64,000 bases of DNA from a virus, in the UHGV virus genome UHGV-0279745; one strand, written 5' to 3'. Of the stretch, positions 1 through 25,071 are shown one piece after another. Under the pieces are notes generated by a model. It was not told where the DNA came from, made no database searches, and was given only the letters and a program-made list of their open reading frames with translations. How positions within the stretch are numbered: the stretch's first letter is position 1; every line of letters starts with the position of its first letter. The position numbers and the translations under genes were made by a program.

Positions 1-720
1 CGTCCCCGGAAGCTTGGAAGGAGATTTATCCACCAACGAAAAATAACCGTTATGAGAGTGAGCGCGTACGCTTAGAATGGCGTGAGTTCTTTCAGGAACA
101 ATCGTTCTCATTCTTTCCAAGACACCTTCCGATTATTTCATCAAAACTGATCGTTACGGAGGAACGCCGACAAGGTATTTTTATCGATCCGGTTTATACC
201 AGTGCTATCGACGCAGTAAAAAATGTGGCGTTATTGTACACGAATGCACGTCGCATCGAACCACGATTTATTATTCGCCGCGCAATCAAAGCGAATCGAC
301 AACTTGCGTATTTCTATATTGACCATCGTCAGGAAGTGATGGAAGGTAAACCTGGGTTCTATCGGGCAAAACTCGGGTCAACACACGTACCGTGGGGCGG
401 ACGTGTGACTATCTCTCCTATCTCTGAACCTCACGATGCGTTGAAAGTTATTGCGCCTTGGCGTTGGTTGGTTCCGTTGGCGAGTGTTCACATTGAGAAC
501 AAGTTAGGTCGTCGTGATTATACACCTCGACAATGTGAGCGTATCATTGCATTTGCGGCAATGCAGTATGTACCGCTGGTACATGAAATTATTAATGAGT
601 TGATTAAAGAATCCCCCGGCGGATTCGGCTTAATGTTGGAAGTTCTGCGTAACCCAACATTGGTTCAACTTTCTATTCAGACTTTGTTCATCTCAGCGGT
701 ACTGACAGATGTAACACAAT
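1..720 (+). CDS. multisubunit RNA polymerase beta' subunit, N-terminal module, exon 1 (5'-partial; continues upstream of window)
   Basis: Frame open from window edge (codons from nt 3). PWGGRVTISPI resembles the bacterial YSGRSVITVGP motif; LRNPTLVQLSIQTLF (nt 645-689) resembles NRAPTLHRLGIQAF. The 3' end at 720 is a model, not resolved; the frame stays open to 896. Confidence 0.6.
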
Positions 721-1070
721 GTTCTCTGCGTATTTCTGATCGCGTCATCAAAGCACCTAATGCTAAACACTGGCCCACTAGACGGGAAACCTCTAGTGTG
801 TATCCCTCGAATTGCTGGAAACCCCTAAAGCTTACGATCCCGACAGGGTGGCGAAAGTCAGAAACAATTCGTAAGATAACCTATGCTAACCAATAATGCT
901 AAGGGTTGTGATAATGGATAACCAGCAGCGATGAAAATCGTTCAACGACTATCGAAAGGGTAAAACCGAGTAGAGTAGCTGCTTAGTTTAGCGGCGAAGT
1001 GGGGGAGACCTACGGGTAGCAATACCTACGGTTATGATATAGTCTGTGCCCATGTGAAAGCATGGGAGGG
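721..1070 (+). other. putative ORF-less group I self-splicing intron in the beta' gene (boundaries approximate)
   Basis: P-like AATTGCTGGAAA (810-821) pairs with Q-like CCAGCA (922-927); R-like TTCAACGACTATCG (941-954) and S-like GATATAGTC (1036-1044) give a GACTA/TAGTC P7 pairing. GNRA-type hairpins at 776-798 and 1048-1066. Stop codons in all frames around 894-915. Reading frame switches across the element. Confidence 0.6.
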
Positions 1071-1354
1071 TGTCATTGCACACCTGCTCCAAAAGGAATG
1101 GAGTGGACAAACAGGATTTCGATGGCGACCAGTTACAATGCAGATTGGCAATCGACCAGATTGAAATGGAACTGGGCATGGCTTATCGCCCAGACAACGG
1201 GTTTATGTCAAGCACGAATGTGGACGAGGTTTCGAGTTGCATGATTCTCCATAACGAGAATATCAGCAACATAAACAGTTTCTTCCAGGATACTGAAGAG
1301 GACTTGGAAGCCGGTATCGCGCTTGACTCGGAATTATTAAAATTGGCGGGGTAA
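1071..1354 (+). CDS. RNA polymerase beta' subunit N-terminal module, exon 2 (catalytic DFDGD segment)
   Basis: DFDGD encoded at 1115-1129, followed by FMSSTNV resembling bacterial MMSTNNI. No in-frame ATG and no usable RBS upstream (in-frame stop at 1055-1057), and frame differs from exon 1, so expression as a separate polypeptide is unlikely. Confidence 0.65.
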
Positions 1355-1360
1355 TGAAAC

Positions 1361-1948
1361 ATGGGCATGTGGAACTTAGGCGGAACCATCTGGACGCGAC
1401 AAACTGAAAATAGCGGGATGTATCGCTATTTCAGAGACAATTTCGATATTAACGCCTTTGCTCCTGACATGATCGAAAGCGTTAAACGAAAATGTAATGA
1501 GTTAATTTCATTAGAGCGTTTCCGTGAGATGTATGCAGCCGCACGCAAAGTACAGCACAGCGATGCGACTGACGTTGTACGACAATTGGAGAAGATAGGA
1601 CAATTCCAGTTTGCAAACGCAACTTTACAGCCGTTGCTGATGGCATTGCCTGAATATCGACAATTGTACAATAACAACATGGCGACCGGTTACGAGAACG
1701 GGTATTCGAAAATCGATAACTTCCGTGGTTCGGCGTATATGCATACGGACGATAACTTCCGCGAAGTAACGTCGGGTATGTCCAACGAGTACGATGAAGA
1801 TCGTATTTGGAACTGGGTATCCAACGAAGATCGATCCAACAAACTCACGCGTGTGGAGCAAGTTGACATGCAAATCAACTGGGCACGTATGCGGAGTTTT
1901 GATTGGGAAGACGAAGATCCGTGTTCTGAACTCGGCGCTTCGTGTTAA
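1361..1948 (+). CDS. hypothetical protein
   Basis: 195-aa ORF immediately after the beta' module, followed by terminator at 1954-1990. Confidence 0.5.
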   Translation: MGMWNLGGTIWTRQTENSGMYRYFRDNFDINAFAPDMIESVKRKCNELISLERFREMYAAARKVQHSDATDVVRQLEKIGQFQFANATLQPLLMALPEYRQLYNNNMATGYENGYSKIDNFRGSAYMHTDDNFREVTSGMSNEYDEDRIWNWVSNEDRSNKLTRVEQVDMQINWARMRSFDWEDEDPCSELGASC

Positions 1949-1953
1949 TCGAA

Positions 1954-1990
1954 AAGAAGGGGATTGGGCACCCCCTTCTTTTTTCTTATT
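1954..1990 (+). terminator. rho-independent terminator
   Basis: Stem GAAGGGG/CCCCTTC (1956-1962 / 1972-1978) followed by a T-run. Confidence 0.6.
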
Positions 1991-2025
1991 TACAGCAGCA
2001 GCTATCAATGTGATAGGAGTAGAGA

Positions 2026-2409
2026 ATGGCGATTGCAGTAGGCACGGTTTCTACACGCGGCTGGGCAAAAACTCCCCGTGAACGTATTCGTGAGATGATG
2101 AATCATTACACGGAAGCGGGGTATAGCCAATCGCAAATTTATCAAGGCAACGTCCGGTCACTTGCGAAAGCAAAGCAAATGTTTGCTCAAGATCCCGACG
2201 GCTTAGCCAATCGGGTGAAAACAGACTTAACCACGCTTTACGAACATATTTTCCCTGAGGGGGTTGAAGTAGAGACAACCTGGGAATATTTGCCGGATAC
2301 CGATGTACGCTACCGTATCATCATCCAAGCTCGTGTTATGTCGGGTGGGGTGTGGTATGATGTGGAACGTTACGTTGAAACTGAATCATCAGTCATTGAG
2401 GATGAGTAA
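2026..2409 (+). CDS. hypothetical protein
   Basis: 127-aa ORF with RBS-like GGAG upstream. Confidence 0.5.
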   Translation: MAIAVGTVSTRGWAKTPRERIREMMNHYTEAGYSQSQIYQGNVRSLAKAKQMFAQDPDGLANRVKTDLTTLYEHIFPEGVEVETTWEYLPDTDVRYRIIIQARVMSGGVWYDVERYVETESSVIEDE

Positions 2410-2411
2410 GG

Positions 2412-3080
2412 ATGGATCAAGAACCGGGAAAATTTAATGGGGTGCCCATTGAAGAACTTTCTGGCCGTGCTAAGTTTGAGTTTGAGAAACTTCTTGAAAT
2501 GGAAGAGATGCTTAAACAGGGCCAGGGTGTGTGCAGCGTGTTTACTGAATCGATGTTCCGTCGACAAGGTTTACCGCTGTTGTCGGGGATGTTGGACGGT
2601 ACGTTTAACGAAGATACCTGGACGGATTATGTAGGTAGTGCTTTCGTTCCGTTACAGATTGTTTCGGATTCGGATAATTCAAAACTACTCTTTACGATCC
2701 CGCCCCTGCTTAATACTGGTCGGTCGCTCCAACACGTCGATGGTCAGCCGTCGCTCACTGAAGAAACAGAGATGATTCGCCAACAAGCCGATATCATTTC
2801 CGAGGTCGGTGAACGGCAGATGTATCAGATGATCGACTATACGTTGGACGGCATCGAAAAGTTGTCGTACGAAGAAAATGCACTTCGTGCGAAACAGACT
2901 ATCGATCTGTTAAACTGGATCTTCCGTCGTTATAACGTGTCAGGACAATTACCTTATCCTGAAGGACTTGAAGAATTGTGCAATCGTATCCAGGGACAAA
3001 AGAAACCTGTAACGGCGGCACAGCCTGAACAGTCCTCCCCTGCTAAGGGAAGAAGAATCATCGATGAAGAGGATTACTAA
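2412..3080 (+). CDS. hypothetical protein
   Basis: 222-aa ORF; RBS AGGA upstream; overlaps the next gene by 17 nt. Confidence 0.55.
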   Translation: MDQEPGKFNGVPIEELSGRAKFEFEKLLEMEEMLKQGQGVCSVFTESMFRRQGLPLLSGMLDGTFNEDTWTDYVGSAFVPLQIVSDSDNSKLLFTIPPLLNTGRSLQHVDGQPSLTEETEMIRQQADIISEVGERQMYQMIDYTLDGIEKLSYEENALRAKQTIDLLNWIFRRYNVSGQLPYPEGLEELCNRIQGQKKPVTAAQPEQSSPAKGRRIIDEEDY

Positions 3081-4212
3081 TCCGCCACCGAAACCAGTTG
3101 GCGTTAAGCGCATTTTCTCAACGGGCGATGTACACTTATTGCACCGTCGTGTACCGACGTGGCATATTGTTAACGTGCTCAAGGAAACCTTAGAACGGTT
3201 CGATAATACGATTGACGCTATTTATATAGCTGGTGATTTATTTGATGATTCCCGGCATTTGCGGCAAGAAGATTCTCAGGAAGCCATAGGGTTTTTAACT
3301 TGGTTATTGCTCTGGGCCAAACAGACGAATACCGCTATTCGTGTCTTGGAAGGAACACCCTCCCACGATCACAAACAATCGAAAATCGTCGAAGAGTTAA
3401 ATCAGGCGGTGGGTGCAGATTGTTTGTATCTGGATAAGATTGGCGTGTTTTACGACGAGGCGTTAGAAGCGACAGTCGGTTGGGTCCAGGACGAGTATAA
3501 AGCCCTGGGTTCCGAATCCATTGATGCTGCCGCAACAGAACAGGAAATGGCTGAATTATTAGCCACGCGTGGTATACAGCAGATGGATTTCTGCTTTATG
3601 CATGGCTGCTTTCAGTTCCAAGTTCCCGTTGAGTCTACCCGCTTTTTCCATACGGATTTTTGGGAACCGTTAGTCAAGCATTTGATTATCATCCATCACG
3701 ATCATCGTAGGAAACAATTGGGTAAGATTCGTGTACCAGGCAGCCCTGATCGCCTGGCAATGGGTGAAGAAGAGGACAAAGGCTTTGCTATTGTCGATTT
3801 CACTCCTGATTTAGCCAGAGATTATTTCTTGGTTAATGAACGCGCTTGCCCGCAGATTAAGATTGCTGCGGAGGAGGACTATGAATCGCAGTACGCGAAA
3901 TGTCTCTCTGCGCTTGAGTACATTGATACTCATCCGTCCTCAGTGATTGGACGATTGGAAATTGAATATTACCCTGATTCTCCATTGGCGGAAGCCATCA
4001 CTCGTTGGAAATCACAATATTCTTTCCATATTTCAGGTACGCGTATACGTACGCCTGAAGAGGAGCAAATTCTCGCAGCCGGTTTTGCTATCGACGCAGA
4101 GGTCGAGGAAACCATCTCTGAAGAGAATGTGGAAGCGATTTTGTTAGAAGCATTAGTGCCGTTTAAATACGATGCACAAATTGTCACTGACATTATCAGG
4201 AGCATCAAATGA
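3064..4212 (+). CDS. calcineurin-like phosphoesterase, SbcD/Mre11-like nuclease
   Basis: Phosphoesterase motifs in order: GDVHL, GDLFDD, GTPSHD, FMHGCF, IIHHDH. Confidence 0.55.
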   Translation: MKRITNPPPKPVGVKRIFSTGDVHLLHRRVPTWHIVNVLKETLERFDNTIDAIYIAGDLFDDSRHLRQEDSQEAIGFLTWLLLWAKQTNTAIRVLEGTPSHDHKQSKIVEELNQAVGADCLYLDKIGVFYDEALEATVGWVQDEYKALGSESIDAAATEQEMAELLATRGIQQMDFCFMHGCFQFQVPVESTRFFHTDFWEPLVKHLIIIHHDHRRKQLGKIRVPGSPDRLAMGEEEDKGFAIVDFTPDLARDYFLVNERACPQIKIAAEEDYESQYAKCLSALEYIDTHPSSVIGRLEIEYYPDSPLAEAITRWKSQYSFHISGTRIRTPEEEQILAAGFAIDAEVEETISEENVEAILLEALVPFKYDAQIVTDIIRSIK

Positions 4213-5045
4213 CCCCAATCAGTGTTGATCGCACGTTTGGGTTTTATCAAATGTCAATTGCTACATCGTTGGCTTTTGAAGGGCTTCTCCATGAAGGAGA
4301 ATATGCCGATTGGAAGGGTCCTGTCCCTATCCACAAGTATCAGGATATTTACCTGAATCTACGGACGTTGTTCCGTAACGCGTTTTACGCGTTTGAAACG
4401 AATCGTGAACGATTAACACCTGAAGTGTTGCTGGCATCGATTGAAGAAGATATTGCTTCTATTAACGCTACCGCGAAAGCGGTAGCGCCTTCGGTGCTAT
4501 GTGTCCCCTATATCTGTACGTATAAAAGTGCGAACAGAATCTTCCCCGAAGCAGCGTTCCGTACGATTGCAGGAGGGCAGGAAAAGATGACACCTAACCA
4601 GCATCACTTTAATGCGCTAGAACACGATACGTTAAAGTTATACGGTGAAAAATACCCTGAACAATTCAAAAGCTTTGATGTGTTTCCGAAAGGGCAGCAT
4701 GACACATTGATTTTAACCCATTACCCTGCCGATCTACTGGCCTACAAAGATTTCCCGCTGTTGAATCTGCTAGAATCACACACGGGTAAGATTAAAGGTC
4801 GGTTAGAATGGTACACGAAGCTTTACGGTAAACCCGAACAGATCCCGTTTAACAAAGCGTTTCTAACGCTATTTGGCGATGGGTATATGTTCTCCCCACT
4901 TGACAGAAAGGTGCGTAAGGTGGTTTTGAAGACTGCCGAGAAATACCACTGGCGACAAGATACGACTATGGATCGTATTTACAGTTGTTTGAAGTTGGTT
5001 AACGAACCCTTTGTCATTGAGTTCCTTCGTAGATTGTCTCGCTAA
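4209..5045 (+). CDS. hypothetical protein
   Basis: 278-aa ORF; start overlaps the preceding stop (ATGA). Confidence 0.55.
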   Translation: MTPISVDRTFGFYQMSIATSLAFEGLLHEGEYADWKGPVPIHKYQDIYLNLRTLFRNAFYAFETNRERLTPEVLLASIEEDIASINATAKAVAPSVLCVPYICTYKSANRIFPEAAFRTIAGGQEKMTPNQHHFNALEHDTLKLYGEKYPEQFKSFDVFPKGQHDTLILTHYPADLLAYKDFPLLNLLESHTGKIKGRLEWYTKLYGKPEQIPFNKAFLTLFGDGYMFSPLDRKVRKVVLKTAEKYHWRQDTTMDRIYSCLKLVNEPFVIEFLRRLSR

Positions 5046-5103
5046 TTTTACAGATCGTTTTGTTAGTTTGAGCACTCCGAAAATGTAAAAATAGGATAAG
5101 TAA

Positions 5104-5748
5104 ATGGTCAATAAAAACTTCCTTAAAGAGAAATGGCTTTACCCGCAGACTGAGCCGGATCAACAGGGCCGTACGCGTAAACTGGGCATTGAACTGAACG
5201 AGTTCAATGGTGATGTGGAACTGATGAAATTCCACTACTCCTTTGGTAAAGGCGAAGGTCTTTATTTCACCGCAGGCTATACCGTTTGCGTTGATATCTT
5301 TGAAACCCTACGTACGGTGATGCAGAAACCCGAAAAAGTTGTTTTCAAATGGGAAGATGCAAAAGGTAAGAAGGCACCGGTTAGCTTACACGTAGGTCGT
5401 GATGAAAACCTGACACCGTTCTTTGCACTGAGCGGCGAGATCCCAGGGGTTGGTGCGCGTCAGAAGAAATTCTATTTCACTTATCCGAAAGGTTATCGTG
5501 TTTTCCGTAATGGACAACTGGTCTCCGATCTGGAACTGGCAGAGCGTCAGCTACGCGCGTTCCTGAAAAATGCGGATGTATTCCTGGAAGATTTCCGTGA
5601 CAACTACAAACCGCGTGAGTTTAATAATGCGGGTGGTGGTAGTTACGGTCGTGGTGGTTACAATAACGGCGGCAATGGCGGCGGTTATAACAACCAATCC
5701 GGTGCAAAAGCCCCAACACCAACTAACGATTTTGACGATATTATCTAA
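5104..5748 (+). CDS. putative single-stranded DNA-binding protein (SSB-like)
   Basis: Gly/Asn/Tyr-rich flexible tail ending in acidic tip NDFDDII, resembling the bacterial SSB DFDDDIPF tail. Strongly optimised codon usage. N-terminal OB fold not verified. Confidence 0.45.
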   Translation: MVNKNFLKEKWLYPQTEPDQQGRTRKLGIELNEFNGDVELMKFHYSFGKGEGLYFTAGYTVCVDIFETLRTVMQKPEKVVFKWEDAKGKKAPVSLHVGRDENLTPFFALSGEIPGVGARQKKFYFTYPKGYRVFRNGQLVSDLELAERQLRAFLKNADVFLEDFRDNYKPREFNNAGGGSYGRGGYNNGGNGGGYNNQSGAKAPTPTNDFDDII

Positions 5749-5768
5749 ATAATGTAAAACTATAACAT

Positions 5769-5797
5769 AGCCCCAGGATATCCTGGGGCTCTTTATC
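5769..5797 (+). terminator. rho-independent terminator (palindromic stem)
   Basis: CCCCAGGATATCCTGGGG palindrome (5771-5788) followed by a T-rich tract. Confidence 0.5.
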
Positions 5798-5881
5798 GTG
5801 TATGTGTGTAGAATACAGTCGAAGTTATCTGAGATAGATTTTATCTTAGTGGACGACTATGTTATTCCTGGAGATTTTAAA

Positions 5882-7510
5882 ATGCGCATTGAAAAGAATC
5901 GTGACCGTTTAGTGATAAAGTACGGCGAAAAAGAGGTCGCGTTTAATGGTTTCCGAAATGGACGTAAAGACGTGAATGTGCCAGACGTACGCGATAGTTT
6001 CGGACAGATCGTAACGCACGATAAAATCATGTTCATGGAAATCGAGCGTTATTGGTCAACTTTAACGCCTGAAGAGAAAAGCGAACTGTTTTCAGTTTAC
6101 GAAGAATTAGAGTTGTTAGCTAATGAACCCCCAGAAGTTATTCGTGAACACGTCCCCACGCTCGTCGCGAGAATTGCTAAATTTCATCACGCAGATAGAT
6201 TCCGCCAGCTTTATCCACACGGTTCGGTGTGGATTCCTCAAAACGTCCACGAAACGTACGAAGAGATGTCGTCGAATTATCCAAAAGAGATGACGTATAT
6301 CGTACAAGATTATTACGAATTGGTGATTTTGTCTTTGATGACAAAACCGTTTATTCCCGTATTCTTGATTTTGGACGCTTTTCCTGCAACACGCGCTTCT
6401 GTTGAGTCGAAGCGCAAAAGTGTTTATAACCTGACCTACTGCATGGAGTTGTTGTCTGATACCGAGATTGCTACACTGCCAGCCATTACAAAGTTGCGTG
6501 AGTTTTTAGTGTCGGTGATTTCGAAAGTTCAGGACGGAGGGAGTAAAGGACCCAATACTGCAAACCTTACCGTCCTGGCATCTATCTGTGGCTACGGTAC
6601 GGATATGGTAGAGGAATACATCATAGCGTTCGCCGTTATCCGTTTAATTGCAATGAAGTTAATCGGTGCCGAACTACCGCCAGGTACGATGGTTGAAAAC
6701 AACATCGTGGCGGGGATGTATTTCAATATTCGACAAGAAATCGAAACGGGCTTCGCGGGAAAAATTTCCGGCCAAAACGTGATGTTAAAAGCGAATCCTG
6801 AGAAAATCATGTTCAATGGCGAGAAGGGGAAAACTTCGTCGATTGACCTGGTTCAAGCTCGGACTAAAGCACCAATGAAGGAATTCGTTCGTACCCAAGA
6901 ATTCTTTAATGACTATCGTCGTGCGGTACGTGCTTTGAATCTCGATATTGCTCCCGCTGATGTGAAAGTGTTGATAGATTCCATCAACATTAATCATCAA
7001 TATCCGTTCTACGAACTCTACGAATGGTTGGTGGCGGCAGTGATGCACCGATTTGCAGATCGTCGTACATACAAGGAAATCGACTCAGAAGCGTTTAAGA
7101 ACGCGATGGGTATATCCCAAGCCGTTTACATCTATTACGGAATGCCTGAGATTGCACAGTTGTTAAGTTGTGAAATGATCCGGGCACCACTAAATGGCGG
7201 GTATCCCATCGAGCCTATCGATAATGAGATTAAAATAAAAACGGATAGATATTATCCACAAGCATACCGTAAACATCGTAATACTTACGAACAATCAACA
7301 TTGAAGGATTCTCTCAGCTTGTTGGTTCGTGAACATATTGCGCCGTTCAACTTCAATCTCAGGGCAACACCGGAAGCAGCCAGAATGTTACGGTGTGGGA
7401 CAGTGATGTTGGACTATTCACCTCATCCGCGACTTCAGAACATGTTAGCAGAATTTCTGTTAATTCAAAACAGAAAGAAATGCGAAGAAGTAGCATGGTT
7501 TAATCAATAA
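5882..7510 (+). CDS. hypothetical protein
   Basis: Long ORF; start placed at the first ATG with RBS GGAGAT (5869-5874). The track's GTG start at 5798 lies inside the terminator tail. Confidence 0.55.
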   Translation: MRIEKNRDRLVIKYGEKEVAFNGFRNGRKDVNVPDVRDSFGQIVTHDKIMFMEIERYWSTLTPEEKSELFSVYEELELLANEPPEVIREHVPTLVARIAKFHHADRFRQLYPHGSVWIPQNVHETYEEMSSNYPKEMTYIVQDYYELVILSLMTKPFIPVFLILDAFPATRASVESKRKSVYNLTYCMELLSDTEIATLPAITKLREFLVSVISKVQDGGSKGPNTANLTVLASICGYGTDMVEEYIIAFAVIRLIAMKLIGAELPPGTMVENNIVAGMYFNIRQEIETGFAGKISGQNVMLKANPEKIMFNGEKGKTSSIDLVQARTKAPMKEFVRTQEFFNDYRRAVRALNLDIAPADVKVLIDSININHQYPFYELYEWLVAAVMHRFADRRTYKEIDSEAFKNAMGISQAVYIYYGMPEIAQLLSCEMIRAPLNGGYPIEPIDNEIKIKTDRYYPQAYRKHRNTYEQSTLKDSLSLLVREHIAPFNFNLRATPEAARMLRCGTVMLDYSPHPRLQNMLAEFLLIQNRKKCEEVAWFNQ

Positions 7511-7540
7511 TTTTCGGCTTGACCTAAAGGAGCATTTACA

Positions 7541-9247
7541 ATGGCAATGAAACTTTTGAAACTACAAATGTATCCAGTGTACGAAATCCCAGAGCAGATT
7601 CGTCGTCGCATTGGGTTCTTTGAATCGCAGCACGCTTTGGATGAGTTAGTGGATGTGGTTGCAGAACATGGTGATAAAGCAACAGGTTCTCGGGCTTATC
7701 AAGAAGCCTTGGGGCAGATTGTGGGTTTCGACAATACCCCAACTGGCATTGAACGTCCATTCATTAACGTGAGTGATAACGAATCGCAACCAATCCATTT
7801 TGCGTATAATTCTCGCGATACTGGTGTGTATAACTTCGTGGCGATTATTGTTTCGAACTCGTTAAATGACACACGGACTCAAGAAACACGTTATGTTGTT
7901 TCCGGGTATACGTCCCAGGCAGAGCGATCCATGTTTAATCACCTGCCGGATGACATGGTTCTGTATATCAACGAAATATACGGGTTACAATGTACGTATA
8001 TCACCGATGCGTTTGGTGGACGTCGTATCAACCCGGATTCCTTCCGTTTGATAGACAACTATGTGTTGTCCAAGACATTAACCGCAGACAGCTATGTAGA
8101 GCACACCATTGACGTTATTTCTACCGCGAAAGCAGCTGATATGGTGCGTAAAGTGGTGAAAGCAGGTGAGCAGATTGAGCTGGATAACAACACCGTTATC
8201 TCCGCTAATTGCCAGCGTGCGCCACAGTTGATGTCTAGTCAATTAACCAGACCAGAATCTTTCGTGACGGCGATCTCCAATTCCTTTATTAACACCATGG
8301 GGATTGAAACGGAGTTGAGCGCAGTAGACAGCTTCTTCGCAGGAGATCATTCTCTTGGGGTAGAATCTGAACTTAGCCAGATTGGTGTGATGCGTAATTT
8401 CAACAGTTACGAGTTGGTGAAGGCTTTTAGAACCGCCATATCCAACGCCACGTCCGATATGACTAGCGGTTGGAACGTTGCGAACCGTGCAGCATTCAAA
8501 CTGTGCGACCTGCGTAACGCGGTGATTAATCCCGAAGATGTGGATGCTGCAATTGCGCACTCGCTGGCTGTCGCAGCCCGTCGTGGTTTTGGTGAAATTG
8601 AACGCACCGATGATTGGGTAGGACGTAACAACTATTCTACTCAGGGTTCGTTGGTGGCATTTGATTTAGCCATGTTACTGGGGCCTGTGGTCACTCGTAA
8701 CCTTATCGGCGAAGTGACTTTCTTCTACGATAACCGTATGGCGGATATTGCAACACCTCCTCTGCTGCAAGTGTCAAAACACAACGTTGGGGCATTAACT
8801 GAAGACGGATTACCGGATGTGTTAGCACGTCGCTTCTTAAGTGACTTACAAGGCGTGTTCTTGCAAGTGACTAAACACAACCGTATTCGTTGTAAGATGA
8901 CCGTAACGTGTATCGTTGGGGTGGTTTCACGTATTGAAATCGAAATCGATGGTGAGCTACCTGAGTATTATACTCATGCGTCGTTCATGAAAGCACGTCT
9001 GCATTGTGGTACAACGACTGACCTTCAGTACACGAACCAGTTAGCTGCAGAAACAGCGCAGCTGATGAACAAAGTGGAAGAAGGGTACCAAGAATTCAAC
9101 CGTGGTCAGAACCGTTCGAATATCCTGTCGAATATCCCAACTGCCCCTGTGTCTGCACCTACGAGCCTGGGTAGCTTCGGTAGCTTTGGTGGTGGCGATA
9201 TGTCAACCTCTGCGCCAGTGTCTGGCTTTGGTGCATTCGGCGAGTAA
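7541..9247 (+). CDS. hypothetical protein with Gly/Ser/Phe-rich C-terminal tail
   Basis: 568-aa ORF; RBS AAGGAG; C-terminus SLGSFGSFGGGDMSTSAPVSGFGAFGE. Confidence 0.6.
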   Translation: MAMKLLKLQMYPVYEIPEQIRRRIGFFESQHALDELVDVVAEHGDKATGSRAYQEALGQIVGFDNTPTGIERPFINVSDNESQPIHFAYNSRDTGVYNFVAIIVSNSLNDTRTQETRYVVSGYTSQAERSMFNHLPDDMVLYINEIYGLQCTYITDAFGGRRINPDSFRLIDNYVLSKTLTADSYVEHTIDVISTAKAADMVRKVVKAGEQIELDNNTVISANCQRAPQLMSSQLTRPESFVTAISNSFINTMGIETELSAVDSFFAGDHSLGVESELSQIGVMRNFNSYELVKAFRTAISNATSDMTSGWNVANRAAFKLCDLRNAVINPEDVDAAIAHSLAVAARRGFGEIERTDDWVGRNNYSTQGSLVAFDLAMLLGPVVTRNLIGEVTFFYDNRMADIATPPLLQVSKHNVGALTEDGLPDVLARRFLSDLQGVFLQVTKHNRIRCKMTVTCIVGVVSRIEIEIDGELPEYYTHASFMKARLHCGTTTDLQYTNQLAAETAQLMNKVEEGYQEFNRGQNRSNILSNIPTAPVSAPTSLGSFGSFGGGDMSTSAPVSGFGAFGE

Positions 9248-9269
9248 AAGATTAATCAAGGACTCTTAA

Positions 9270-10625
9270 ATGAAAATTATTGAATTCTACAAATCGTTTC
9301 TTAAATCACAAGGATTCGATTTTGAAAACGATTTACTCACTCGTGACGGTGGTGAACCGGCAGAGTTTACGTATAACAAAGTGAAGCGCCGTTTGGCGCT
9401 TCCCACCCCAGCGATGATTAAGCGTGGTATGGAAGACGATGATGGTCGTGAATGTCAGGCATTTCATCCACTGTGTGAATCGGTACTGGCAGGTGAATCA
9501 GGGACAATTCGTTTCCTGAAGAAATCCATTAATGCGAACCTGTTCATTCGTTCCTTTGCATTAATCGACGCGATTCTGGAAACGGGGGCAAGTGGTAAAG
9601 CAGTACGTTCTGCATCCTACAAGAAGTTCTTAACAGAACAGATTTGCGAAGGGATGAAAGATCCGACGTTCGACGAACGTTTGGTGAAATCCTGGGAAGC
9701 GGTGAAAGCGTTCGTCTATGGACAATTGGAAAAAGATAAAAAGCACAAGATCACCCAGCTTTTTATTGCATCTGATTTAGTTATCGACGGCGTGAAGTTT
9801 AACCGCGTAGCTAATTATCGGAATATGTTCGAAGAAGAATCGTTAGATGGTACTGCAATGTACTTCTCTGCGAAGCTTCAACGTAAACAAGACAAAATCA
9901 TTATCCACCGTTTACTGACCACCGTGTTCGGTTGGTATCCGAGCGTAACGGGGTCTAATGATTCGCGTCCGTATTTCGGTTGCTTAGCACGTGGCTGGGC
10001 GCAGTACGTTGTGAATTACAATAATGTCGTTAAGGGATTGCGCGACCACACATCTTTACGTCCGTTGGAAGATGAATGGATTTCTCAGCTGGACAATATG
10101 GATATTTACGATAACGTTATTCAGACTTTACCGTATAACACCGGCCCACGTTCTGACAGCCCTGAACGTGATACCACGGCGCATGATTTCCGTATCGATC
10201 GTGCGCAGGCTCCGCAGCAGATTCCACAAAAACGTGCATCGGATGCGGATAAAGCGGATAAGTCAGATCCGATGGAATTCTTCCGTGCTCGTGAACGTAA
10301 CATGGCCGCGCGAAGTCCTTATGGGAATTTGACGCCAGCGATGCAACGTTACGCTGAGCAACACGGAACAACTAGCCCTGCCAACGGTATGGTAAGTCGA
10401 ATTTCTGTTGTGGATGCGTTTGGTGGTGAGCGCAAGGTGTCACCTTTCGGTGGTCAGAGTATTTTTGGTGTAGGGAATACCGGAGGCTCTTTGGCAAGTA
10501 CCTTTGGTGGAGGGAATAATTCTTTCAGCGGGGATGTCGGTGGGACTAGCGCGTTTAGCACGAGTTCAGCATTTGCAACGAACAGCAGTTTCGGTGGATT
10601 TGCAACTTCGGCATTTACGCGTTAA
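9270..10625 (+). CDS. hypothetical protein with long FG/SG-repeat-like C-terminal tail
   Basis: 451-aa ORF; the last ~80 aa are low-complexity G/S/F/T-rich (FGG, FGV, FSG, FGGF repeats). Confidence 0.6.
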   Translation: MKIIEFYKSFLKSQGFDFENDLLTRDGGEPAEFTYNKVKRRLALPTPAMIKRGMEDDDGRECQAFHPLCESVLAGESGTIRFLKKSINANLFIRSFALIDAILETGASGKAVRSASYKKFLTEQICEGMKDPTFDERLVKSWEAVKAFVYGQLEKDKKHKITQLFIASDLVIDGVKFNRVANYRNMFEEESLDGTAMYFSAKLQRKQDKIIIHRLLTTVFGWYPSVTGSNDSRPYFGCLARGWAQYVVNYNNVVKGLRDHTSLRPLEDEWISQLDNMDIYDNVIQTLPYNTGPRSDSPERDTTAHDFRIDRAQAPQQIPQKRASDADKADKSDPMEFFRARERNMAARSPYGNLTPAMQRYAEQHGTTSPANGMVSRISVVDAFGGERKVSPFGGQSIFGVGNTGGSLASTFGGGNNSFSGDVGGTSAFSTSSAFATNSSFGGFATSAFTR

Positions 10626-10635
10626 GTGAAGTATA

Positions 10636-10665
10636 AAAGAAGGGACTCGGTCCCTTCTTTTTTTA
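10636..10665. terminator. terminator hairpin between convergent genes
   Basis: Stem AGAAGGGAC/TCCCTTCT followed by a T-run; lies between the + gene ending 10625 and the - gene ending 10663. Confidence 0.55.
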
Positions 10666-10986
10666 ATCATTACCGATGGTGCTAATAATCTCACTAACCG
10701 TTCCGACGTCGGGTACGATTAGTTGCGTGATTTCAGGGGTGAAATTCATGGGGTCTTCTAGCCCGTTTAATAGCATCATCGGATAGATAATGATATCGGC
10801 GTAACCTTTGAGTTTACAGTAGGCGTAGAAATTGTGGACCTCAGGCCAACTGTAGCGTGGGTCAACATTTTCTATTTTAGTTTTCGGGTGTTTACGCAGA
10901 TAGTCTGTGTAATCGTGCATCACTTTCCATGTCGTGGTGTAAGGCGCAGGTATGAATTCTTCTAGGGTAATAAAATTGTCTAACAT
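10663..10986 (-). CDS. hypothetical small protein
   Basis: 107-aa ORF on the minus strand with RBS AGGAAC; divergent from the beta gene. Confidence 0.5.
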   Translation of the reverse strand: MLDNFITLEEFIPAPYTTTWKVMHDYTDYLRKHPKTKIENVDPRYSWPEVHNFYAYCKLKGYADIIIYPMMLLNGLEDPMNFTPEITQLIVPDVGTVSEIISTIGND

Positions 10987-11049
10987 AATCGTTCCTAAAA
11001 TAAGTGAGATAGATATTATCCTACTGAATCAACCTAAAGGAGCATTAAA

Positions 11050-13287
11050 ATGAAAACGCCAGTAGAGCTAATGAGCAGTGTGGCTGACCGTGAGATTAAT
11101 ATCACCGAAGTATCAGGTGCAAGGGCATCGATGGTAGGCAACCATATGAAGTCTGCGGTCCCTATCGACAATCCTGAACCATCGCCGCATTTTACAGGCG
11201 CAGATATAAACTACCACGATTTTCTGTTCAACGACGTTGTAGAAGATCCCGGTAGCATCTGCCACTATATGACCAAAGACGGTCGTCAGCGCCGCGCGAC
11301 GTTTACACGTTATGGTCGTCGTGGGGATTCTAAAGCGTTAGAACATGCTATCTTCTTCCGCCGTGCAGAAATGAAGGGCGGTAAAACCATGATAGATGTG
11401 CTGGAGATTAACTTCTATACTAACCACGACAACATCTTCTCATCTGAGAAACGTGAGTCGATGAAACTGCGTAGTATTTTACGTGGTGAAACCGATCAGT
11501 TGGAAAAGGATGAAATCCTTACAACGATGTCGTGTATGGTGGAAGGCGAGTACGCCGATAGCGTTGTGCTACCAACCGTTACGATTTCGCATCCTGATAT
11601 CATCGAGGATTCTTACACCATCTCTGAGTACGCCGCCCAAAAACTCCACGGTTATGGTTTGAAAATCGTTGAAAAGACGCTACGTGAAGACGAGTTTTTA
11701 CTGGATACTTACGGTTATATCGATCCGAACGGTAATCGCGTCCCACGGTATTTCCCGGATGTGGGGGAGGCTATTCGTGACGATGGGTTGGTCATTGCAT
11801 CGCGTCGTTTCGATGAACTTTACGGTGCAATTGATGCGTCGCTTGGGGAAACCCAACACGTCTCTCCGTTCTTTGATAGTTGCGAATATGTGGATGCCGA
11901 TCCCGTCCATTATAAAGCACGTCTTGCAGGTGACAAAGAACTGATGGAACGTAGCGGTACACGTATCGTCGATATCCAGGTGTGGCGTGATGAAACGTCT
12001 TGCGCGAATGGTGCTAACAATATTTCTTGTACCGAAGAGAACAAACGAGAACTGGATAAATACGCATTAGCATTGAAAGACTATTACAATGCCATCGTAC
12101 GATTCTATTTCTCGATGTCCCGTGACAAAAATATTATCTGGTCGCCGAAAGCGTGTGTGTTGTTGGAGAAAGCGTTCGCTTCTGAAACGTACGAGGTCTA
12201 TCACGAGTTTCGTGAAGAGATACGCGTGGTGATTGATGAAGCAATTCGTCGTGGTGAATACGGTAAAGAAAATGTCAGTCAGCAGATTCTTTCTAAGTTG
12301 ACCTCGCCAGTACAACGTGGACTCAGCGATCCCATCAACACGTATACCATTCGTATTGCTGTTCGTTATCCGATCCCGGTAACGGTGTCGTCTAAGATTA
12401 CCGACCGCTCGGGTACGAAAGGGATTGTTGGACGTGTATTACCCGTTGAACAGATGCCGATTAACGAATTCGGTGAACGTGTTCACGTTTTACGTTCGAT
12501 GAACGCTGTAATTCGTCGCTCGACATATGCAGCATTATTCCACATGTATTGGTCAGCTGCGTCTGAACAGTTGAAAATGCGTCTCAAACCATTGCTGGAT
12601 GAAGGACGTATCAGCGAGAGCTGGGAAATCCTGATGGATTATCTATCACGCTATAATCCAGAATGGGCCAATACACTACAGGCAACGCATCCTACGGAGG
12701 ATTTACAACGCGAACTTTTCAAAGAGATTTACGATTTTACAATCCGTATTTACTTACCACATGAACTTGACGACACGCCAGTCGATATCAGTGAACGGTT
12801 GGGTGAATTTAAACCGCGTAAATCCAAACTCCTGATTACTAATTTCGATGGTAAACAGGAATGGACAAAAAATGAGTTTTACGTAGGTGGTGTGGAAACA
12901 TTACGTCTGGATAAAACAGGTCGTGAGTTTTCCAGTATTTCGTCAATGTATCTGAATTATCTGGGTACGATAGACGCGTCTAACCAAGGCCGTGGTTCGT
13001 ATCCGATAAACTATAAAACGCTAAAATGGGCTGGTCCTTCGGAAGAACGACTGTTAGCGGGTTATGGTCCAGGTAACTACGAAGAAGTTCACGACAGGGC
13101 AAATAACCCTGCGGTGCATCGTGAGATTTTAGTAGGGCTTTATCGATCTCAAACCCCGTCTAATCCGGGTCCACTGGTAGACCGAAATAAATTCCCGTTA
13201 GGGGATTCACAGATTGACAGGATGATGAAAAACATTCACAGCTGTGAAGGGTTTGAATTGGTGAAAATGAAAAGGGGCGATGAATAA
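11050..13287 (+). CDS. multisubunit RNA polymerase beta subunit, C-terminal module
   Basis: [12 protein letters not shown] resembles [39 protein letters not shown] resembles [37 protein letters not shown] resembles EMEVWALEAYG. All in the same order as bacterial beta. Confidence 0.75.
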   Translation: [745 protein letters not shown]

Positions 13288-15386
13288 TGAAGGGCACTCC
13301 AGTTCACGTGCGTGATCTGTGTAAACTGAACTCGGATCAGGTGTGGCTATTGCGCGGCAGATATGAAGTGACGTTCGATGACGGGATAACCTTAAACATG
13401 TCAGGACGCCACATTAAAATCAGTTGGCCTTATTGGGGGCTAACACGATTTTATCCGCAGATCCCAATCAGTTCGCAAATGGCGTATAAACATGGCGACA
13501 CCGCTACAGATGACGCACATCTGAAGTTTATGTCATTGGCAGCTGTGGCAGCACGTAAAGCGGGTGTGGATTTAGCAGATACCCGCTATTTATTGCAGCA
13601 GCACGTCTATGCGGATGCGTTTAACTTATCGGTGAAAAATCTGTTGTCGTATTGTGTCACGATTGACTACGATACGATGATGGAAATTTACCAACACCGA
13701 AATTTTACGCAGATTCATCAGTGGGCACAAATGTATCCTACTGGGTACGACGAAGAAGGTCGGGATATGATCGAAGAAGCGTATCTTCTTATCGAAGATA
13801 TCTTCAAAGACCCACAACTTCGTTTAAACCCTGTGGTGATGTCGGTCTTGGATAAGACCATCAAAATGAACCAGGTTCTCCAGGCGTATATACGTGGGAA
13901 AACATCAGAGATTGATTCTCGCGTTTATTCTAACCAGGTATGGGAAGGTTTCTTTACGGGTCTACATTCTGTAATTAGCCGTCTGAAAGAAGCGGGAGCG
14001 ACGTCACGTTCTCACCTGTATAATACCGATAAAATCGCCGATGCGGAATATGCGTCACGTAAGCTACAGTTAGCAGCCAACGTGCTAATGTATTTCGAAT
14101 ACGACGATTGTGGTACGCATCATGTTCATCGCCACACGTTTACAGAAAGTAAACTGGAGCGTAAGAAGTACGACGCGATGGTGGGAATGCGATATCGTTT
14201 TGAAGGCGTGGGTGGCCCGTGGCTACGATTCGAGAAAGGGGAGTTTGAGAAAGTCTTAGGCAAACCTATTGAGTTTCGTACCGCGATGTGTTGTAAGGGG
14301 ATGGCACGTCAAAGCATTTGTGCAACATGCATGGGTGATTTGATTTATAACCTTTCGCCGGGAACATCCCCAGGTCACTTGGCATCAACCTCGATATCTG
14401 AAAAGGGTACACAGGGGATTCTCTCAACGAAGCACTTGGACTTCTTACGCTATCTGCTGAATCTGGTGCTGACTCCAAGAATGCGGGATTATCTTGGGGA
14501 GTATAAACACAACTCCGTAAAAGGGTTGAGTTTACGGGAGAAACCACAGTACGGTAATTGGGATGAATACCAACTCGTTATTTCTGATGAAGTCTATTCT
14601 GAAATCAGCCAAATCGCGTATCATGACGATTTGGAAGTGATCGACGAAACGGCATTGCCGGAGATTAACGAACTGACCTTTTTGCGGTTGGATGAAGCTG
14701 GGAATGTGTTGGCTGAAGATCCCATTGACGTCCGTATGGGGGTTTGTGGTAACTTCTCGAAAGCCTTCTTGCATTTCTTCCTGAAACAGCGCGATAACAT
14801 TACCTTCCCGTCGAAGAAACTGGTACGGATTCCCCTGAAAGGATGGAAACCGAGTTGGCCGATACTAATTTATACGAATCGGTCTGAATCTATGGCGGAG
14901 TTTGTAGCAGGGTTAGAATTGAAACTTCGTTCGGTTGCGTCTGATAAATCGGATACTTTCGAACAGTTCTCTGATGACTCAATGCGTTTGAGCAAGAAGT
15001 CGGGTAAGGTAAAACCAACGACACTGGTTCAGATGCGTGGTGCTACGGAGAAACAATGTACGCACGCGTTATTTGATGTGTTTAAATATATCCAACGTAA
15101 GCTCGGTGGTATTCCGATGACTCACATCGCGATTATGCTGGCGATATCACGCGTTGAATCACCGACCAATCCTTTCCCGGCGGTTGGGTTTGATAGTGAA
15201 GATGCTGATGTGATGGATGGCAAACGTTTCGAGGATCACAATACGTTGATTGCGATGCGTTCAGCTGTACCGATGTTGTTATTCGAAGGCCAACAGAAAA
15301 ACCTGGACAACGTGCGTTTCTACACGTCGCGTAAACGTCCGGCGTCGTTATACGACAATACGGTGGCCGCGACTATCATTGAGTAA
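13287..15386 (+). CDS. multisubunit RNA polymerase beta' subunit, C-terminal module
   Basis: Translationally coupled to the beta module (1-nt overlap). KGMARQSICATCMGDL resembles the bridge helix RKGLADTALKTANSGYL; ASTSISEKGTQGILSTKH resembles trigger-loop AAQSIGEPGTQLTMRTFH. Confidence 0.6.
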   Translation: MKGTPVHVRDLCKLNSDQVWLLRGRYEVTFDDGITLNMSGRHIKISWPYWGLTRFYPQIPISSQMAYKHGDTATDDAHLKFMSLAAVAARKAGVDLADTRYLLQQHVYADAFNLSVKNLLSYCVTIDYDTMMEIYQHRNFTQIHQWAQMYPTGYDEEGRDMIEEAYLLIEDIFKDPQLRLNPVVMSVLDKTIKMNQVLQAYIRGKTSEIDSRVYSNQVWEGFFTGLHSVISRLKEAGATSRSHLYNTDKIADAEYASRKLQLAANVLMYFEYDDCGTHHVHRHTFTESKLERKKYDAMVGMRYRFEGVGGPWLRFEKGEFEKVLGKPIEFRTAMCCKGMARQSICATCMGDLIYNLSPGTSPGHLASTSISEKGTQGILSTKHLDFLRYLLNLVLTPRMRDYLGEYKHNSVKGLSLREKPQYGNWDEYQLVISDEVYSEISQIAYHDDLEVIDETALPEINELTFLRLDEAGNVLAEDPIDVRMGVCGNFSKAFLHFFLKQRDNITFPSKKLVRIPLKGWKPSWPILIYTNRSESMAEFVAGLELKLRSVASDKSDTFEQFSDDSMRLSKKSGKVKPTTLVQMRGATEKQCTHALFDVFKYIQRKLGGIPMTHIAIMLAISRVESPTNPFPAVGFDSEDADVMDGKRFEDHNTLIAMRSAVPMLLFEGQQKNLDNVRFYTSRKRPASLYDNTVAATIIE

Positions 15387-15388
15387 AC

Positions 15389-15416
15389 GAGAGGGGCCTG
15401 CGCCCCTCTTTTTTTG
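15389..15416 (+). terminator. rho-independent terminator
   Basis: Stem AGAGGGGC/GCCCCTCT followed by a T-run. Confidence 0.6.
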
Positions 15417-15428
15417 TAAGAGGGGAGC

Positions 15429-17138
15429 ATGTACGAATTCCACATGACCTTTACGAGTATGGGCGTGAGGGTCGAAGTCCCTTGTCGACCTATAGAGTCG
15501 GCAATCCTAAAGTGGGCAGAAGAGAATATGCACGCCCCGAAAATGGGCAAACAATACGGAAGAATCATCACCGAACGTGGCGATCCGTATTACGCGCATA
15601 TACCTTCTATCCGTACCTTTATATTCCACCGGAATTTTTCCGAACGTTTACGAATCATTATTAACCGAACGGCCGCTGAGTTTGCAATTGACTTTAAACT
15701 CTACGAGCACCACTTAACCCAGGGAACACCTTACCGCTGTACGTTTGAAAACTACGGCTTTAACATGATAGAAGAAGATGAGTCGTCACGCTTCTTTTAT
15801 CAGAATGGCGTTGTAGAAACAGCGTGCCAGCCTAACCGCTTACAAACCATCTTTGAGATTGGTACAGGGATGGGTAAGTCGAAGACGAACATGAAAGTGA
15901 TGGTTCGTAAAGGGGTAAGAACGTTATTGATTCATCGTCCCACGTACATCTCTAAATGGTTATTCGACTTAACGGAAGATCCTACTGGACTTCGTGAATC
16001 GAAAGAGGACGTCTTGGTTATACAGGGCGTACAAGCGGTCTACGAAGCGCTAGAAATGGGTGAAAGTGGTGAGTTGGATAAACGTGGCATCAAAGTTATT
16101 ATCGTCTCTACAGTGACGTTACAGCGGTTTTTGAAAGAATATATCAACACCGCTGCGACTAACCCGGTGAACATCGATGATTTCTATAACACGCTAGGTG
16201 TTGGGTTCTTATCGATGGATGAAGTGCACGAACATTTCCACTTGGTGTACATGGCTGGAATTATGTTGAATCCGCCGCCCTCTGTTGAGATGTCAGCCAC
16301 ACTCCAACCGGGTGAATCGAAAGCGTTCTTGGCAGAACGGTATAAAGAACGTTTCCCACAAGAGGCACGTATCACCATTCCGATTATTCCTGCGGTACAC
16401 GTGAAAGCGTTGTATTACCGAATTGAGAATAAACGGTTTGCGTGGTGGGCAACGAAGATGACCCCGTATAACCACAAACTGTTTGAAGGGAAGCTGATTA
16501 GCGAAAACCTTCATCAGTCGTACGCGGATATGGTCTGGGATGTAATAGAACGGACGTATCTGGCAGGCTATCAACCTGGTCAGAAAGTGTTGGTGTTGTT
16601 TGCAACTGTCGCAATGTGTGAGTTCTTTACGGATTACGTGCGAGAGAAGCTTACACAATCTGATAAGTTCCATGCGTTGATGGTTGCGAAATATAACGCA
16701 GGGGATTCGTATGACGACTTTATTCAAGCGGATTTCTCTATATCAACACCAGGGAAAGCAGGTACTGCGGTTGACAAACCGGGGTTGGTGCACATGTACA
16801 TTACTACCCCTGTGGAAGACCAGCAGTTAAACCGCCAGATGGCCGGACGCCCACGTAAGATTCTCCACAACGACTGGGGTGAACTCGATCCCGTTGTGTG
16901 GTTATTCCATTCTTATTCGATACCGAAGCATTGCAATTACTTGAATGCGCGTCAAAAATCACTGAGTGATTCTGTGTTGTCGTTTAAGATAGCCACCTCA
17001 CCGTATATTGTAAGGAAAGCTGATGTTACTACCGCCGCAGCCAACAGAGCCAACCGCGCCGTATGCCGGTCTGAACTTAGCAAGTTTTCTCGAAAAAGTT
17101 TTAAAGGCGTATCCCGACGTTTTAGACGTCGTAAATAA
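15429..17138 (+). CDS. SF2 DExH-box helicase
   Basis: Walker A GTGMGKSKT; motif II MDEVHE; motif VI-like QMAGRPRK. The last ~40 codons are Arg-rich and overlap the next ORF. Confidence 0.7.
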   Translation: MYEFHMTFTSMGVRVEVPCRPIESAILKWAEENMHAPKMGKQYGRIITERGDPYYAHIPSIRTFIFHRNFSERLRIIINRTAAEFAIDFKLYEHHLTQGTPYRCTFENYGFNMIEEDESSRFFYQNGVVETACQPNRLQTIFEIGTGMGKSKTNMKVMVRKGVRTLLIHRPTYISKWLFDLTEDPTGLRESKEDVLVIQGVQAVYEALEMGESGELDKRGIKVIIVSTVTLQRFLKEYINTAATNPVNIDDFYNTLGVGFLSMDEVHEHFHLVYMAGIMLNPPPSVEMSATLQPGESKAFLAERYKERFPQEARITIPIIPAVHVKALYYRIENKRFAWWATKMTPYNHKLFEGKLISENLHQSYADMVWDVIERTYLAGYQPGQKVLVLFATVAMCEFFTDYVREKLTQSDKFHALMVAKYNAGDSYDDFIQADFSISTPGKAGTAVDKPGLVHMYITTPVEDQQLNRQMAGRPRKILHNDWGELDPVVWLFHSYSIPKHCNYLNARQKSLSDSVLSFKIATSPYIVRKADVTTAAANRANRAVCRSELSKFSRKSFKGVSRRFRRRK

Positions 17139-20506: not shown

Positions 20507-21361
20507 ATGATTGACATTTATACCGATTACGCTGCCGTTCTTACCGTCAATCGTGCGGAAGAACGTGCTGCGCCTTTCCTGGACTTAGTAACGCTGTGTA
20601 TGGATTACGGTTACGATGTTGCGTTAAGCGATGTGTATTGGCAACCGTCGTCTGATCCTGCCGACGAAACCGTAAGACTGGAAGGGATTATTGTAAAATG
20701 TGCCGTGGCGTTAGGCAACCGTTTAGGCGTTGCTTTAAACCCACAAGAAGTTTTCCGTAAACCGAAAGAGACCGTACGTATTCTGGATGGTATTACGTCT
20801 AAATTCGAAGAGTTCGAAGACACCGATACGCTATACGGTCTCGTGATGTCTGGAGAGACGCCAGAGTTTATCCTGGAAAGTATCTGCCGTTACGTATACG
20901 GCGATGACAATATCCATTTTGAAGATTTGGTCATTCGTGTTTCACCCCGTGTAATGACGGTGATGCGTAACTATCTCTCGGCTATGGTTGTGGATGAACA
21001 ACTCGCAGTAGGTAACGATGCGCGTCTGACACGTATTGCAGAATACTTGCGCCTTTATCCGCAAAACCCTTCTGCGTTCGTATTCCTAAACTTACCTGAA
21101 GATCCTGATTTGACGGTTGTTCAACAATCGTTAGTGTTTGACGTCGAAGATTACAGCGAAACAGAATTACTCGAGATGTATACGGTAGGGCTTTCGATTA
21201 TCGATAACGATGACTTTGATGACGCGTATGCCGATCTTTCGACGAACTTAGAGAAACTTAATAATGATGGGTTACAACCCATTACTGTTTTACAACCTGC
21301 ATTAAAAAGCCTACGGCTGATTTATCAGGTTGAGGAGGCAGAGCACGATGACGAGGTTTGA
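20507..21361 (+). CDS. hypothetical protein
   Basis: Start placed at ATG 20507 with RBS AAAAGG; the track's start at 20495 is TTG. Confidence 0.55.
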   Translation: MIDIYTDYAAVLTVNRAEERAAPFLDLVTLCMDYGYDVALSDVYWQPSSDPADETVRLEGIIVKCAVALGNRLGVALNPQEVFRKPKETVRILDGITSKFEEFEDTDTLYGLVMSGETPEFILESICRYVYGDDNIHFEDLVIRVSPRVMTVMRNYLSAMVVDEQLAVGNDARLTRIAEYLRLYPQNPSAFVFLNLPEDPDLTVVQQSLVFDVEDYSETELLEMYTVGLSIIDNDDFDDAYADLSTNLEKLNNDGLQPITVLQPALKSLRLIYQVEEAEHDDEV

Positions 21362-23175: not shown

Positions 23176-23220
23176 TATTACCCTACTCCCGAAGGAGTAG
23201 GGTAACGTTTATTTTTTTTT
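23176..23220. terminator. bidirectional terminator hairpin (12-bp stem TTACCCTACTCC)
   Basis: Stem 23178-23189 / 23194-23205, flanked by an A-run and a T-run; lies between convergent genes. Confidence 0.65.
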
Positions 23221-25000: not shown

Positions 25001-25071
25001 GATTTCACTCTCAAATCTAGCGGCTGCTATACTGATTTGTGGGTAATGTAATTTCTCAAAAGGAAACACAA

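Follow-up and report, generated by a model that had tools for sequence, protein, structure and literature searches.

Which enzyme do the RNA polymerase (RNAP) genes of an uncultured jumbo phage belong to, and how is one of them expressed when its catalytic motif lies outside its main reading frame? These questions are raised by the first 15,386 nucleotides (nt) of a 64,000-nt stretch of UHGV virus genome UHGV-0279745, which we analyzed in full and refer to below as the window (64 kb). A sequence-only reading had recognized three RNAP modules there, that is β′ N-terminal (β′N, 1-1354), β C-terminal (βC, 11050-13287) and β′ C-terminal (β′C, 13287-15386), and had left undecided whether they form one enzyme or two. 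We are confident in an account with three parts: the five genes of a non-virion RNAP (nvRNAP) lie in the window, the β′N gene among them is interrupted by a self-splicing group I intron, and a fragment of a separate virion RNAP is encoded nearby. The source of the window is a nucleus-forming jumbo phage (Chimalliviridae) near Erwinia phages Asesino and phiEaH2 and Salmonella phage SPN3US. Features lie on the + strand unless stated otherwise.

The β′N gene is interrupted at its catalytic motif

The interval 1-1354 is not one open reading frame (ORF). An open frame 3 extends from the window edge to a stop codon at 894-896, and DFDGDQ is encoded in frame 2 (1115-1132), as part of a short ORF that begins with GTG (1070-1354). 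The gene is cut by the left window edge, which leaves about 200 N-terminal residues outside. We assign to it an exon 1 (1-764, frame 3, its 5′ part outside the window) that ends in ...ISDRVIKAPNA (GCT|) and an exon 2 (1115-1354, frame 2) that starts with DFDGDQLQCR. Between the two exons lies a 350-nt group I intron (765-1114), which separates the Ala codon of NA|DFDGD from the first Asp codon; the last base of exon 1 is T764 and the last intron base is G1114.

First, by translating 3-764 and 1115-1351 separately, we found that the two products match adjacent parts of phrog_2987 (“RNA polymerase beta subunit”), at positions 177-417 (6e-86) and 418-477 (2e-14), respectively, with a seamless junction at 417|418. 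The spliced product would read ...RISDRVIKAPNA|DFDGDQLQCR..., where KAPNA|DFDGDQL is the Mg-binding motif, and its active-site peptide KAPNADFDGDQL is identical to that of phiKZ gp55. Also, its alignment to chain A of the solved phiKZ nvRNAP (7OGP_A, gp55, 2e-30) crosses the Mg2+-binding motif NADFDGD, of the DxDGD type that β′N subunits carry in a double-psi β-barrel. The predicted RNA junction 764|1115 is ...CCTAATGCT|GATTTCGAT..., and the junction-spanning tryptic peptide predicted from the spliced protein is APNADFDGDQLQCR. Thus, the earlier assignment of 1-1354 to the β′N module stands as far as the encoded protein is concerned, but the module is not continuous.

Second, we scanned IMG/VR with the spliced β′N protein and obtained four relatives (L015 to L018). 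L015, a 225-kb uncultivated virus genome (UViG), encodes a 100% identical β′N protein on 999 contiguous bases and has no intron (GCT|GAT). DNA identity to the window is 98-99%, and over about 4.2 kb no indel other than the 350 nt separates the two. L018 is intronless as well, and the junctions of both genomes are contiguous, GCT|GAT or GCT|GAC. L016 (96.7% nt identity) and L017 have the 350-nt element of the window, in L016 with 7 substitutions over the 350 positions. Both of these intron-plus genomes and the intron-minus L018 come from one metagenome, 3300045988, and the β′N proteins of the three are 84-99% identical to that of the window.

Third, the interrupting element matches the group I intron model of Rfam, RF00028, at 749-1066 (58.6 bits for a cutoff of 50, E 2.7e-12). 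This single match was the only one to any family in an Rfam scan of the whole window. The predicted helices are P1 (762-765/771-774, GCUA with UGGC, including the pair U764.G772), P2 (776-798), P3 (about 803-808/1001-1007), P4 (813-818/922-927), P7 (947-951/1040-1044, a pseudoknot with the guanosine-binding site) and P9 (1049-1066). The region beyond the Rfam match, 1067-1114, contains two extra hairpins, P9.1/P9.2 (1067-1104). We rejected G1066, the 3′ end of the Rfam match, as the splice site, since three observations agree on G1114, namely the junction between the PHROG matches, the allele that lacks the intron and the conservation of ...ACAAACAG|GAT. No ORF is found within the 350 nt.

Fourth, the fold is conserved among homologues. 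In an alignment of six intron sequences, RNAalifold predicted 90 pairs, and compensatory changes affect 34 of these. When the P7 pseudoknot was added by hand, giving 86 pairs, 97.1% of the cells were paired, against 37-44% in controls with slid partners, and 35 pairs were changed on both sides, against 2-6 in these controls; these statistics are flattered, which counts against the intron, as the six aligned sequences also served to derive the structure and include two near-duplicate pairs. P3, P4, P7, P7.1, P7.2 and P8 are paired in the six homologues, P7 being 100% paired with one compensatory change. Since P7.1 and P7.2 are present and co-vary, the comparison suggests that the intron belongs to subgroup IA.

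Related introns occupy the same site in several SPN3US-like phages

By using sensitive blastn, we found introns 70-74% identical to that of the window in the same gene of SPN3US-like phages. The same insertion site is occupied in SPLA3, EC001, SaP7, Proteus phage 7 and VB_ZK_P1. An ORF-less version of 356 nt is found in SPLA3, EC001, Lh1B and JN03, and a 1.4-kb version in SaP7 and Proteus phage 7, with an HNH-NUMOD endonuclease ORF in the P1 loop. Further copies are those of Raoultella phage VB_ZK_P1 and Klebsiella phage phiKp_32; the phiKp_32 core ends at the same 3′ junction, and its exon 1 end was not located. All located 5′ junctions follow a T and all 3′ junctions follow ...ACAAaCAG. Moreover, the exon and guide strands of P1 co-vary, with GCU/GGC in the window versus GGU/GCC in EC001.

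In Rfam, all relatives scanned score above the cutoff, with matches that fall short of the 3′ splice site by about 50 nt, and the score of the window is the second lowest among them, only that of SaP7 being lower (51.9 bits). In GenBank, the β′N halves of EC001, SPLA3 and SaP7 are annotated as separate coding sequences with the intron unmarked, and we found no description of the β′N intron of SPN3US-like phages in the literature searched.

In VB_ZK_P1 (L011, 1858-2181), the first intron is followed by a 12-nt exon (GATTTTGACGGT, encoding DFDG) and then by another insertion (about 312 nt), which begins after T, ends in G and precedes GATACC...; phiKp_32 (L006) is arranged alike. The second insertion of VB_ZK_P1 has no Rfam match even at E<=1. 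In these two phages, a micro-exon of 12 nt, flanked by intervening sequences on both sides, would encode part of the catalytic motif.

Alternatives to a functional intron

In addition to the provenance of the covariation statistics, several points weigh against the proposed intron. The RF00028 score is just 8.6 bits over the cutoff and the match stops 48 nt short of the 3′ splice site, P1 has only 4 bp, and the intron yielded no convincing P10. Also, the comparisons bear directly on the ribozyme fold and the exact junction, and from these we infer splicing itself; subunit assembly and the non-virion location are likewise deduced from sequence.

With these points in mind, we considered whether the break in 1-1354 could be a frameshift, a pseudogene, an assembly error or a natural split of the gene into 1-896 and 1070-1354, all of them without splicing. 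The two coding sequences given by GenBank in EC001, SPLA3 and SaP7 would be in line with a split, as would the GTG-start ORF at 1070-1354. However, such a split would leave Asn-Ala and the aspartate triad of the motif on different polypeptides, and 44 and 15 unrelated residues would be appended at the two ends. The 350 nt also fit the group I model, with helices kept by compensatory changes; a near-identical genome is missing precisely this segment, the boundaries of which are U| and G|. As for an assembly artefact, it is contradicted by L016, since this genome has the same element with only 7 substitutions. We consider an explanation without splicing to be very improbable.

Slightly less probable still is a relic intron, decaying and poor at splicing, in a β′N gene that is impaired or being lost. 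The lack of a homing endonuclease gene, the 4-bp P1 and the second-lowest Rfam score among the relatives scanned could be read in this way. Against it, the helices of the catalytic core (P3, P4, the P6 region, P7 and P8) are all intact, only 7 of the 350 positions are changed in the L016 variant of the intron, the exons are clearly under purifying selection, with 100% amino acid (aa) identity to the intronless allele of L015, and the nvRNAP is among the essential core functions of Chimalliviridae. A functional group I intron in β′N remains the reading that we retain below.

The three modules are assigned to one non-virion RNAP

To identify the subunits, we combined a PDB sequence search, which led to the chains of the solved phiKZ nvRNAP (7OGP), with PHROG and Pfam profiles. 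The phiKZ enzyme consists of gp55, which carries DFDGD, gp68, a sigma-like and promoter-binding subunit, gp71-73, gp74 and gp123 (PMC8287921). We found a counterpart of each of them in the window.

The first is the product of the interrupted gene (1-764 and 1115-1354), homologous to phiKZ gp55 and SPN3US gp23. When used as a query in phiKZ, it matched in one place only, gp55, the virion paralogue being unmatched.

The βC gene (11050-13287, 745 aa) corresponds to phiKZ gp71-73 and SPN3US gp34, with matches to 7OGP_C (PHIKZ071, 4e-29) and phrog_3295 (1.7e-251) and, in the PDB search, to bacterial β chains at about 1e-5 to 2e-5. It is uninterrupted, and its product contains the second double-psi β-barrel, recognized as Pfam RNA_pol_Rpb2_6 (PF00562) at 24.3 bits for a cutoff of 23.4. 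The β′C gene (13287-15386, 699 aa) corresponds to phiKZ gp74 and SPN3US gp35, and its product, of the subunit type that holds the bridge helix and trigger loop, matches phrog_3015 (1e-223) and 7OGP_D (PHIKZ074, 9e-32), the latter over residues 8-684. The stop codon of βC and the start codon of β′C overlap by one base (TAATG) with a Shine-Dalgarno-like AAAAGGGG just upstream, in agreement with the coupling proposed earlier for these two genes.

The βN gene is located far from the others, at 54037-55812, and corresponds to phiKZ gp123 and SPN3US gp77 (7OGP_E, PHIKZ123, 4e-18; phrog_2943, 2.5e-171). It lies two genes downstream of the major capsid gene, and gp77 is equally placed in SPN3US. Both gp77, the β N-fragment, and gp35 of SPN3US have been named as nvRNAP subunits (PMC5105663).

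The fifth subunit is sigma-like and homologous to phiKZ gp68 (5882-7510; 7OGP_B, PHIKZ068, 3e-10). Its ORF is open from GTG 5798, with ATG 5882 as the likelier start; the gene holds the gp68 position in the syntenic block and falls in the same PHROG as phiKZ gp68, phrog_3209. The sequence-only reading had noted in this protein a weak resemblance of KGPNTANL to the EGPNIGLI block of β. However, KGPNTANL aligns to EAPTLANL of phiKZ gp68 and not to RpoB, and we ruled out 5882-7510 as βN on the basis of this alignment and of the gp68 match. It follows that the roughly 10 kb between the first module and the other two, described earlier as unrelated genes, are not wholly unrelated, as they include an nvRNAP subunit gene.

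Taken alone, Pfam is weak. Rpb2_6 is the only family over its cutoff among the RNAP subunits in the window. No match was obtained for βN, the gp68-like protein or the virion β′ fragment described below, and the support for β′N and β′C (Rpb1_2 and Rpb1_5) is under the gathering score, Rpb1_2 reaching 20.6 bits on β′N for a cutoff of 25.3, which weighs against the assignment of these two subunits.

Five window proteins share PHROGs with the corresponding phiKZ proteins gp55, gp68, gp69, gp70 and gp74, and βC and β′C are embedded in a conserved gene block, gp68-gp69-gp70-βC-β′C-helicase. Because of the matches to the 7OGP chains, the shared PHROGs, this block and the roles described in the literature, we assign the three modules to one enzyme, the five-subunit nvRNAP of Chimalliviridae, and by the same comparisons all five of its genes are present in the window. 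Together, the PHROG, Pfam and 7OGP matches indicate that the motif resemblances noted from the sequence alone were genuine and correctly named as β′N, βC and β′C, and the one-or-two question is answered in favor of one.

The virion RNAP is represented by another gene, at 21348-22649, which is predicted to encode the C-terminal/middle fragment of the virion β′ subunit and is the counterpart of phiKZ gp80 and SPN3US gp42 (phrog_2962, 4e-169). Its ORF is open from TTG 21330. The product is 74% identical to SPN3US gp42 and matches phiKZ gp80, annotated as a structural head protein, in BLASTP (1e-32), with no PDB sequence match. In SPN3US, the virion enzyme is made of gp241, gp218, gp240, gp42 and gp244, and gp42 was detected in virions (PMC5105663). 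By homology, this gene is the sole virion RNAP gene represented in the window, and the three modules fall outside that family. The split β and β′ subunits of a phiKZ-like jumbo phage with two RNAPs, as the sequence-only reading had put it, are borne out.

That the modules stem from two polymerases, for instance a virion β′N with non-virion βC and β′C, is the least probable alternative, since, even if chimalliviruses encode two RNAPs with dispersed genes and the window does hold a virion RNAP gene, β′N matches the nvRNAP chain gp55 (2e-30) and no other place in phiKZ, shares the PHROG of gp55 and is the positional orthologue of SPN3US gp23, the virion β′N of SPN3US being gp240 (PMC5105663).

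A model for the expression of β′N

As with the early genes of phiKZ, synthesis of the β′N pre-mRNA would presumably fall to the injected virion RNAP. Self-splicing would then rely on U764.G772 in P1, on the guanosine-binding P7 and on the terminal G1114, and the joining of the exons would restore the Mg2+-binding aspartate triad. In contrast, translation of an unspliced message would end at 894-896 and yield a protein without all three aspartates, so the mature β′N protein presumably arises only after RNA splicing. As judged from the solved phiKZ enzyme, the five proteins would assemble into an RNAP that lacks α and ω, is independent of the host and transcribes middle and late genes. A practical consequence is that gene callers will report the catalytic β′N as two fragments, as in several GenBank records.

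We also looked for homologues of the HNH proteins of SaP7, phiKp_32, phiKZ (gp56/gp72) and FishSpeaker and found none in the 64-kb window. Because there is neither an ORF in the intron nor a related HNH gene in these 64 kb, the intron, if mobile at all, would have to rely on the endonuclease of a co-infecting relative acting in trans.

In exon 1, 3 of the 14 differences between the window and L015 (743, 755 and 761) fall within 22 nt upstream of the insertion site, and there are no differences in the first 125 nt downstream of it. This clustering could reflect a short co-conversion tract, variation of an endonuclease site, or chance.

Setting and other genes of the window

The + strand of the region is densely coded, with a GC content near 0.46. 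A megablast of window positions 1-15400 against GenBank phages gave zero matches, and relatives were detectable only by protein comparison or sensitive blastn. The best match is the 77% aa identity between βC and Asesino gp51. Given the empty megablast and this best match, the source phage has no close cultured relative. The genes are arranged in the same order as in SPN3US (0023-0047) and Asesino (gp40-64), and this order also matches the phiKZ block SbcD, gp66, gp67, gp68, gp69, gp70, gp71-73, gp74, helicase ... gp79, gp80. No tRNA genes were detected in the window.

Between the gp68-like gene and βC lie 7541-9247 (phrog_3141) and 9270-10625 (phrog_3520), the PHROG and positional homologues of phiKZ gp69 and gp70. 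For 7541-9247 the BLASTP comparison with gp69 was not significant (E 1.2), and its homology is drawn from the profile and synteny only; phiKZ gp69 is the nuclear import factor Imp1/PicA. By PHROG, we also identified further core genes of chimalliviruses: a DNA helicase (15429-17138), a DNA polymerase (23219-25114, − strand), a DnaB-like helicase (48425-49987, − strand), the major head protein (50538-52832) and a large virion structural protein (58249-60966, − strand, phrog_3004). Two tandem paralogues of an internal head protein family (phrog_2497) are found at 35551-36822 and 36905-38170, and the long antisense ORFs that shadow them on the − strand (35506-36693 and 36887-38197) are probably non-coding.

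Comparison with known systems

Split virion and non-virion RNAPs, and introns in RNAP genes, are established in chimalliviruses (PMC7598289; PMC11620839; PMC12908238). A split RNAP is textbook biology for these phages, and that of the window is nothing new in kind.

Compared with the phiKZ nvRNAP (PDB 7OGP/7OGR/8QUE/9RJS), the enzyme of the window has the same five subunits and the same split points, and both phages have a common local block (SbcD-like, two further genes, gp68, gp69, gp70, βC, β′C, helicase), whereas protein similarity is distant (phmmer 1e-10 to 1e-32). Both also have a group I intron in the β′N gene at the catalytic motif. The phiKZ intron contains the HNH gene gp56 and is inserted one codon upstream (AAT|...G|GCT versus GCT|GAT), so that exon 1 ends at PHROG position 416 in phiKZ and at 417 in the window, where the intron is ORF-less. 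In contrast to the uninterrupted βC of the window, that of phiKZ (63275-66595, L019) is split by an insertion with gp72, an HNH-type endonuclease that the RefSeq record leaves unnamed. Intron occupancy of RNAP genes varies gene by gene among chimalliviruses.

The nvRNAP genes of SPN3US and Asesino (Seoulvirus, Erskinevirus), that is gp23, gp30, gp34, gp35 and gp77, are in an order collinear with the window, with aa identities of 67% for β′N and 70-77% for βC. Their β′N genes are, however, uninterrupted and intronless, reading KMANG|DFDGDQF where the window has KAPNA|DFDGDQL and an intron. Another likeness is to the introns of SPLA3, EC001, Lh1B, JN03, SaP7 and Proteus phage 7, which are inserted before the first Asp codon as in the window and have the 70-74% identical core and the 3′ end ...GGACAAACAG|GAT in common with it. 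They differ in the last exon codon and guide (GGU/GCC, versus GCU for Ala and GGC in the window) and, for SaP7 and Proteus phage 7, in the endonuclease ORF that the window intron is without.

A further parallel is the intron of PhiPA3 gp210, which sits in the virion RNAP β gene and whose nicking HNH endonuclease acts as a weapon in phage competition (Birkholz et al. 2024, PMC11620839). Both this intron and that of the window belong to group I and interrupt a chimallivirus RNAP gene at codons for active-site aspartates, and both are patchily distributed among close, potentially co-infecting phages. They differ in the gene, virion β versus nvRNAP β′N, and in that the intron of the window is endonuclease-free. 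By interrupting NA|DFDGD, an ORF-less intron would destroy the target of HNH endonucleases of the same family (SaP7/Proteus phage 7; phiKp_32), and it might be kept as a shield, an idea that we put forward tentatively and hold to be unlikely. If true, the essential nvRNAP gene would be immune to nicking during co-infection, a defensive counterpart of the “intron weapon” of PhiPA3 gp210. The presence of intron-plus and intron-minus relatives in one metagenome, together with the three substitutions just upstream of the insertion site relative to L015, fits active intron traffic. The main value of the locus lies in these natural pairs of near-identical genomes, one with the intron and one lacking it, which are suited to asking whether introns in the active-site codons of RNAP genes affect competition among nucleus-forming phages during co-infection.

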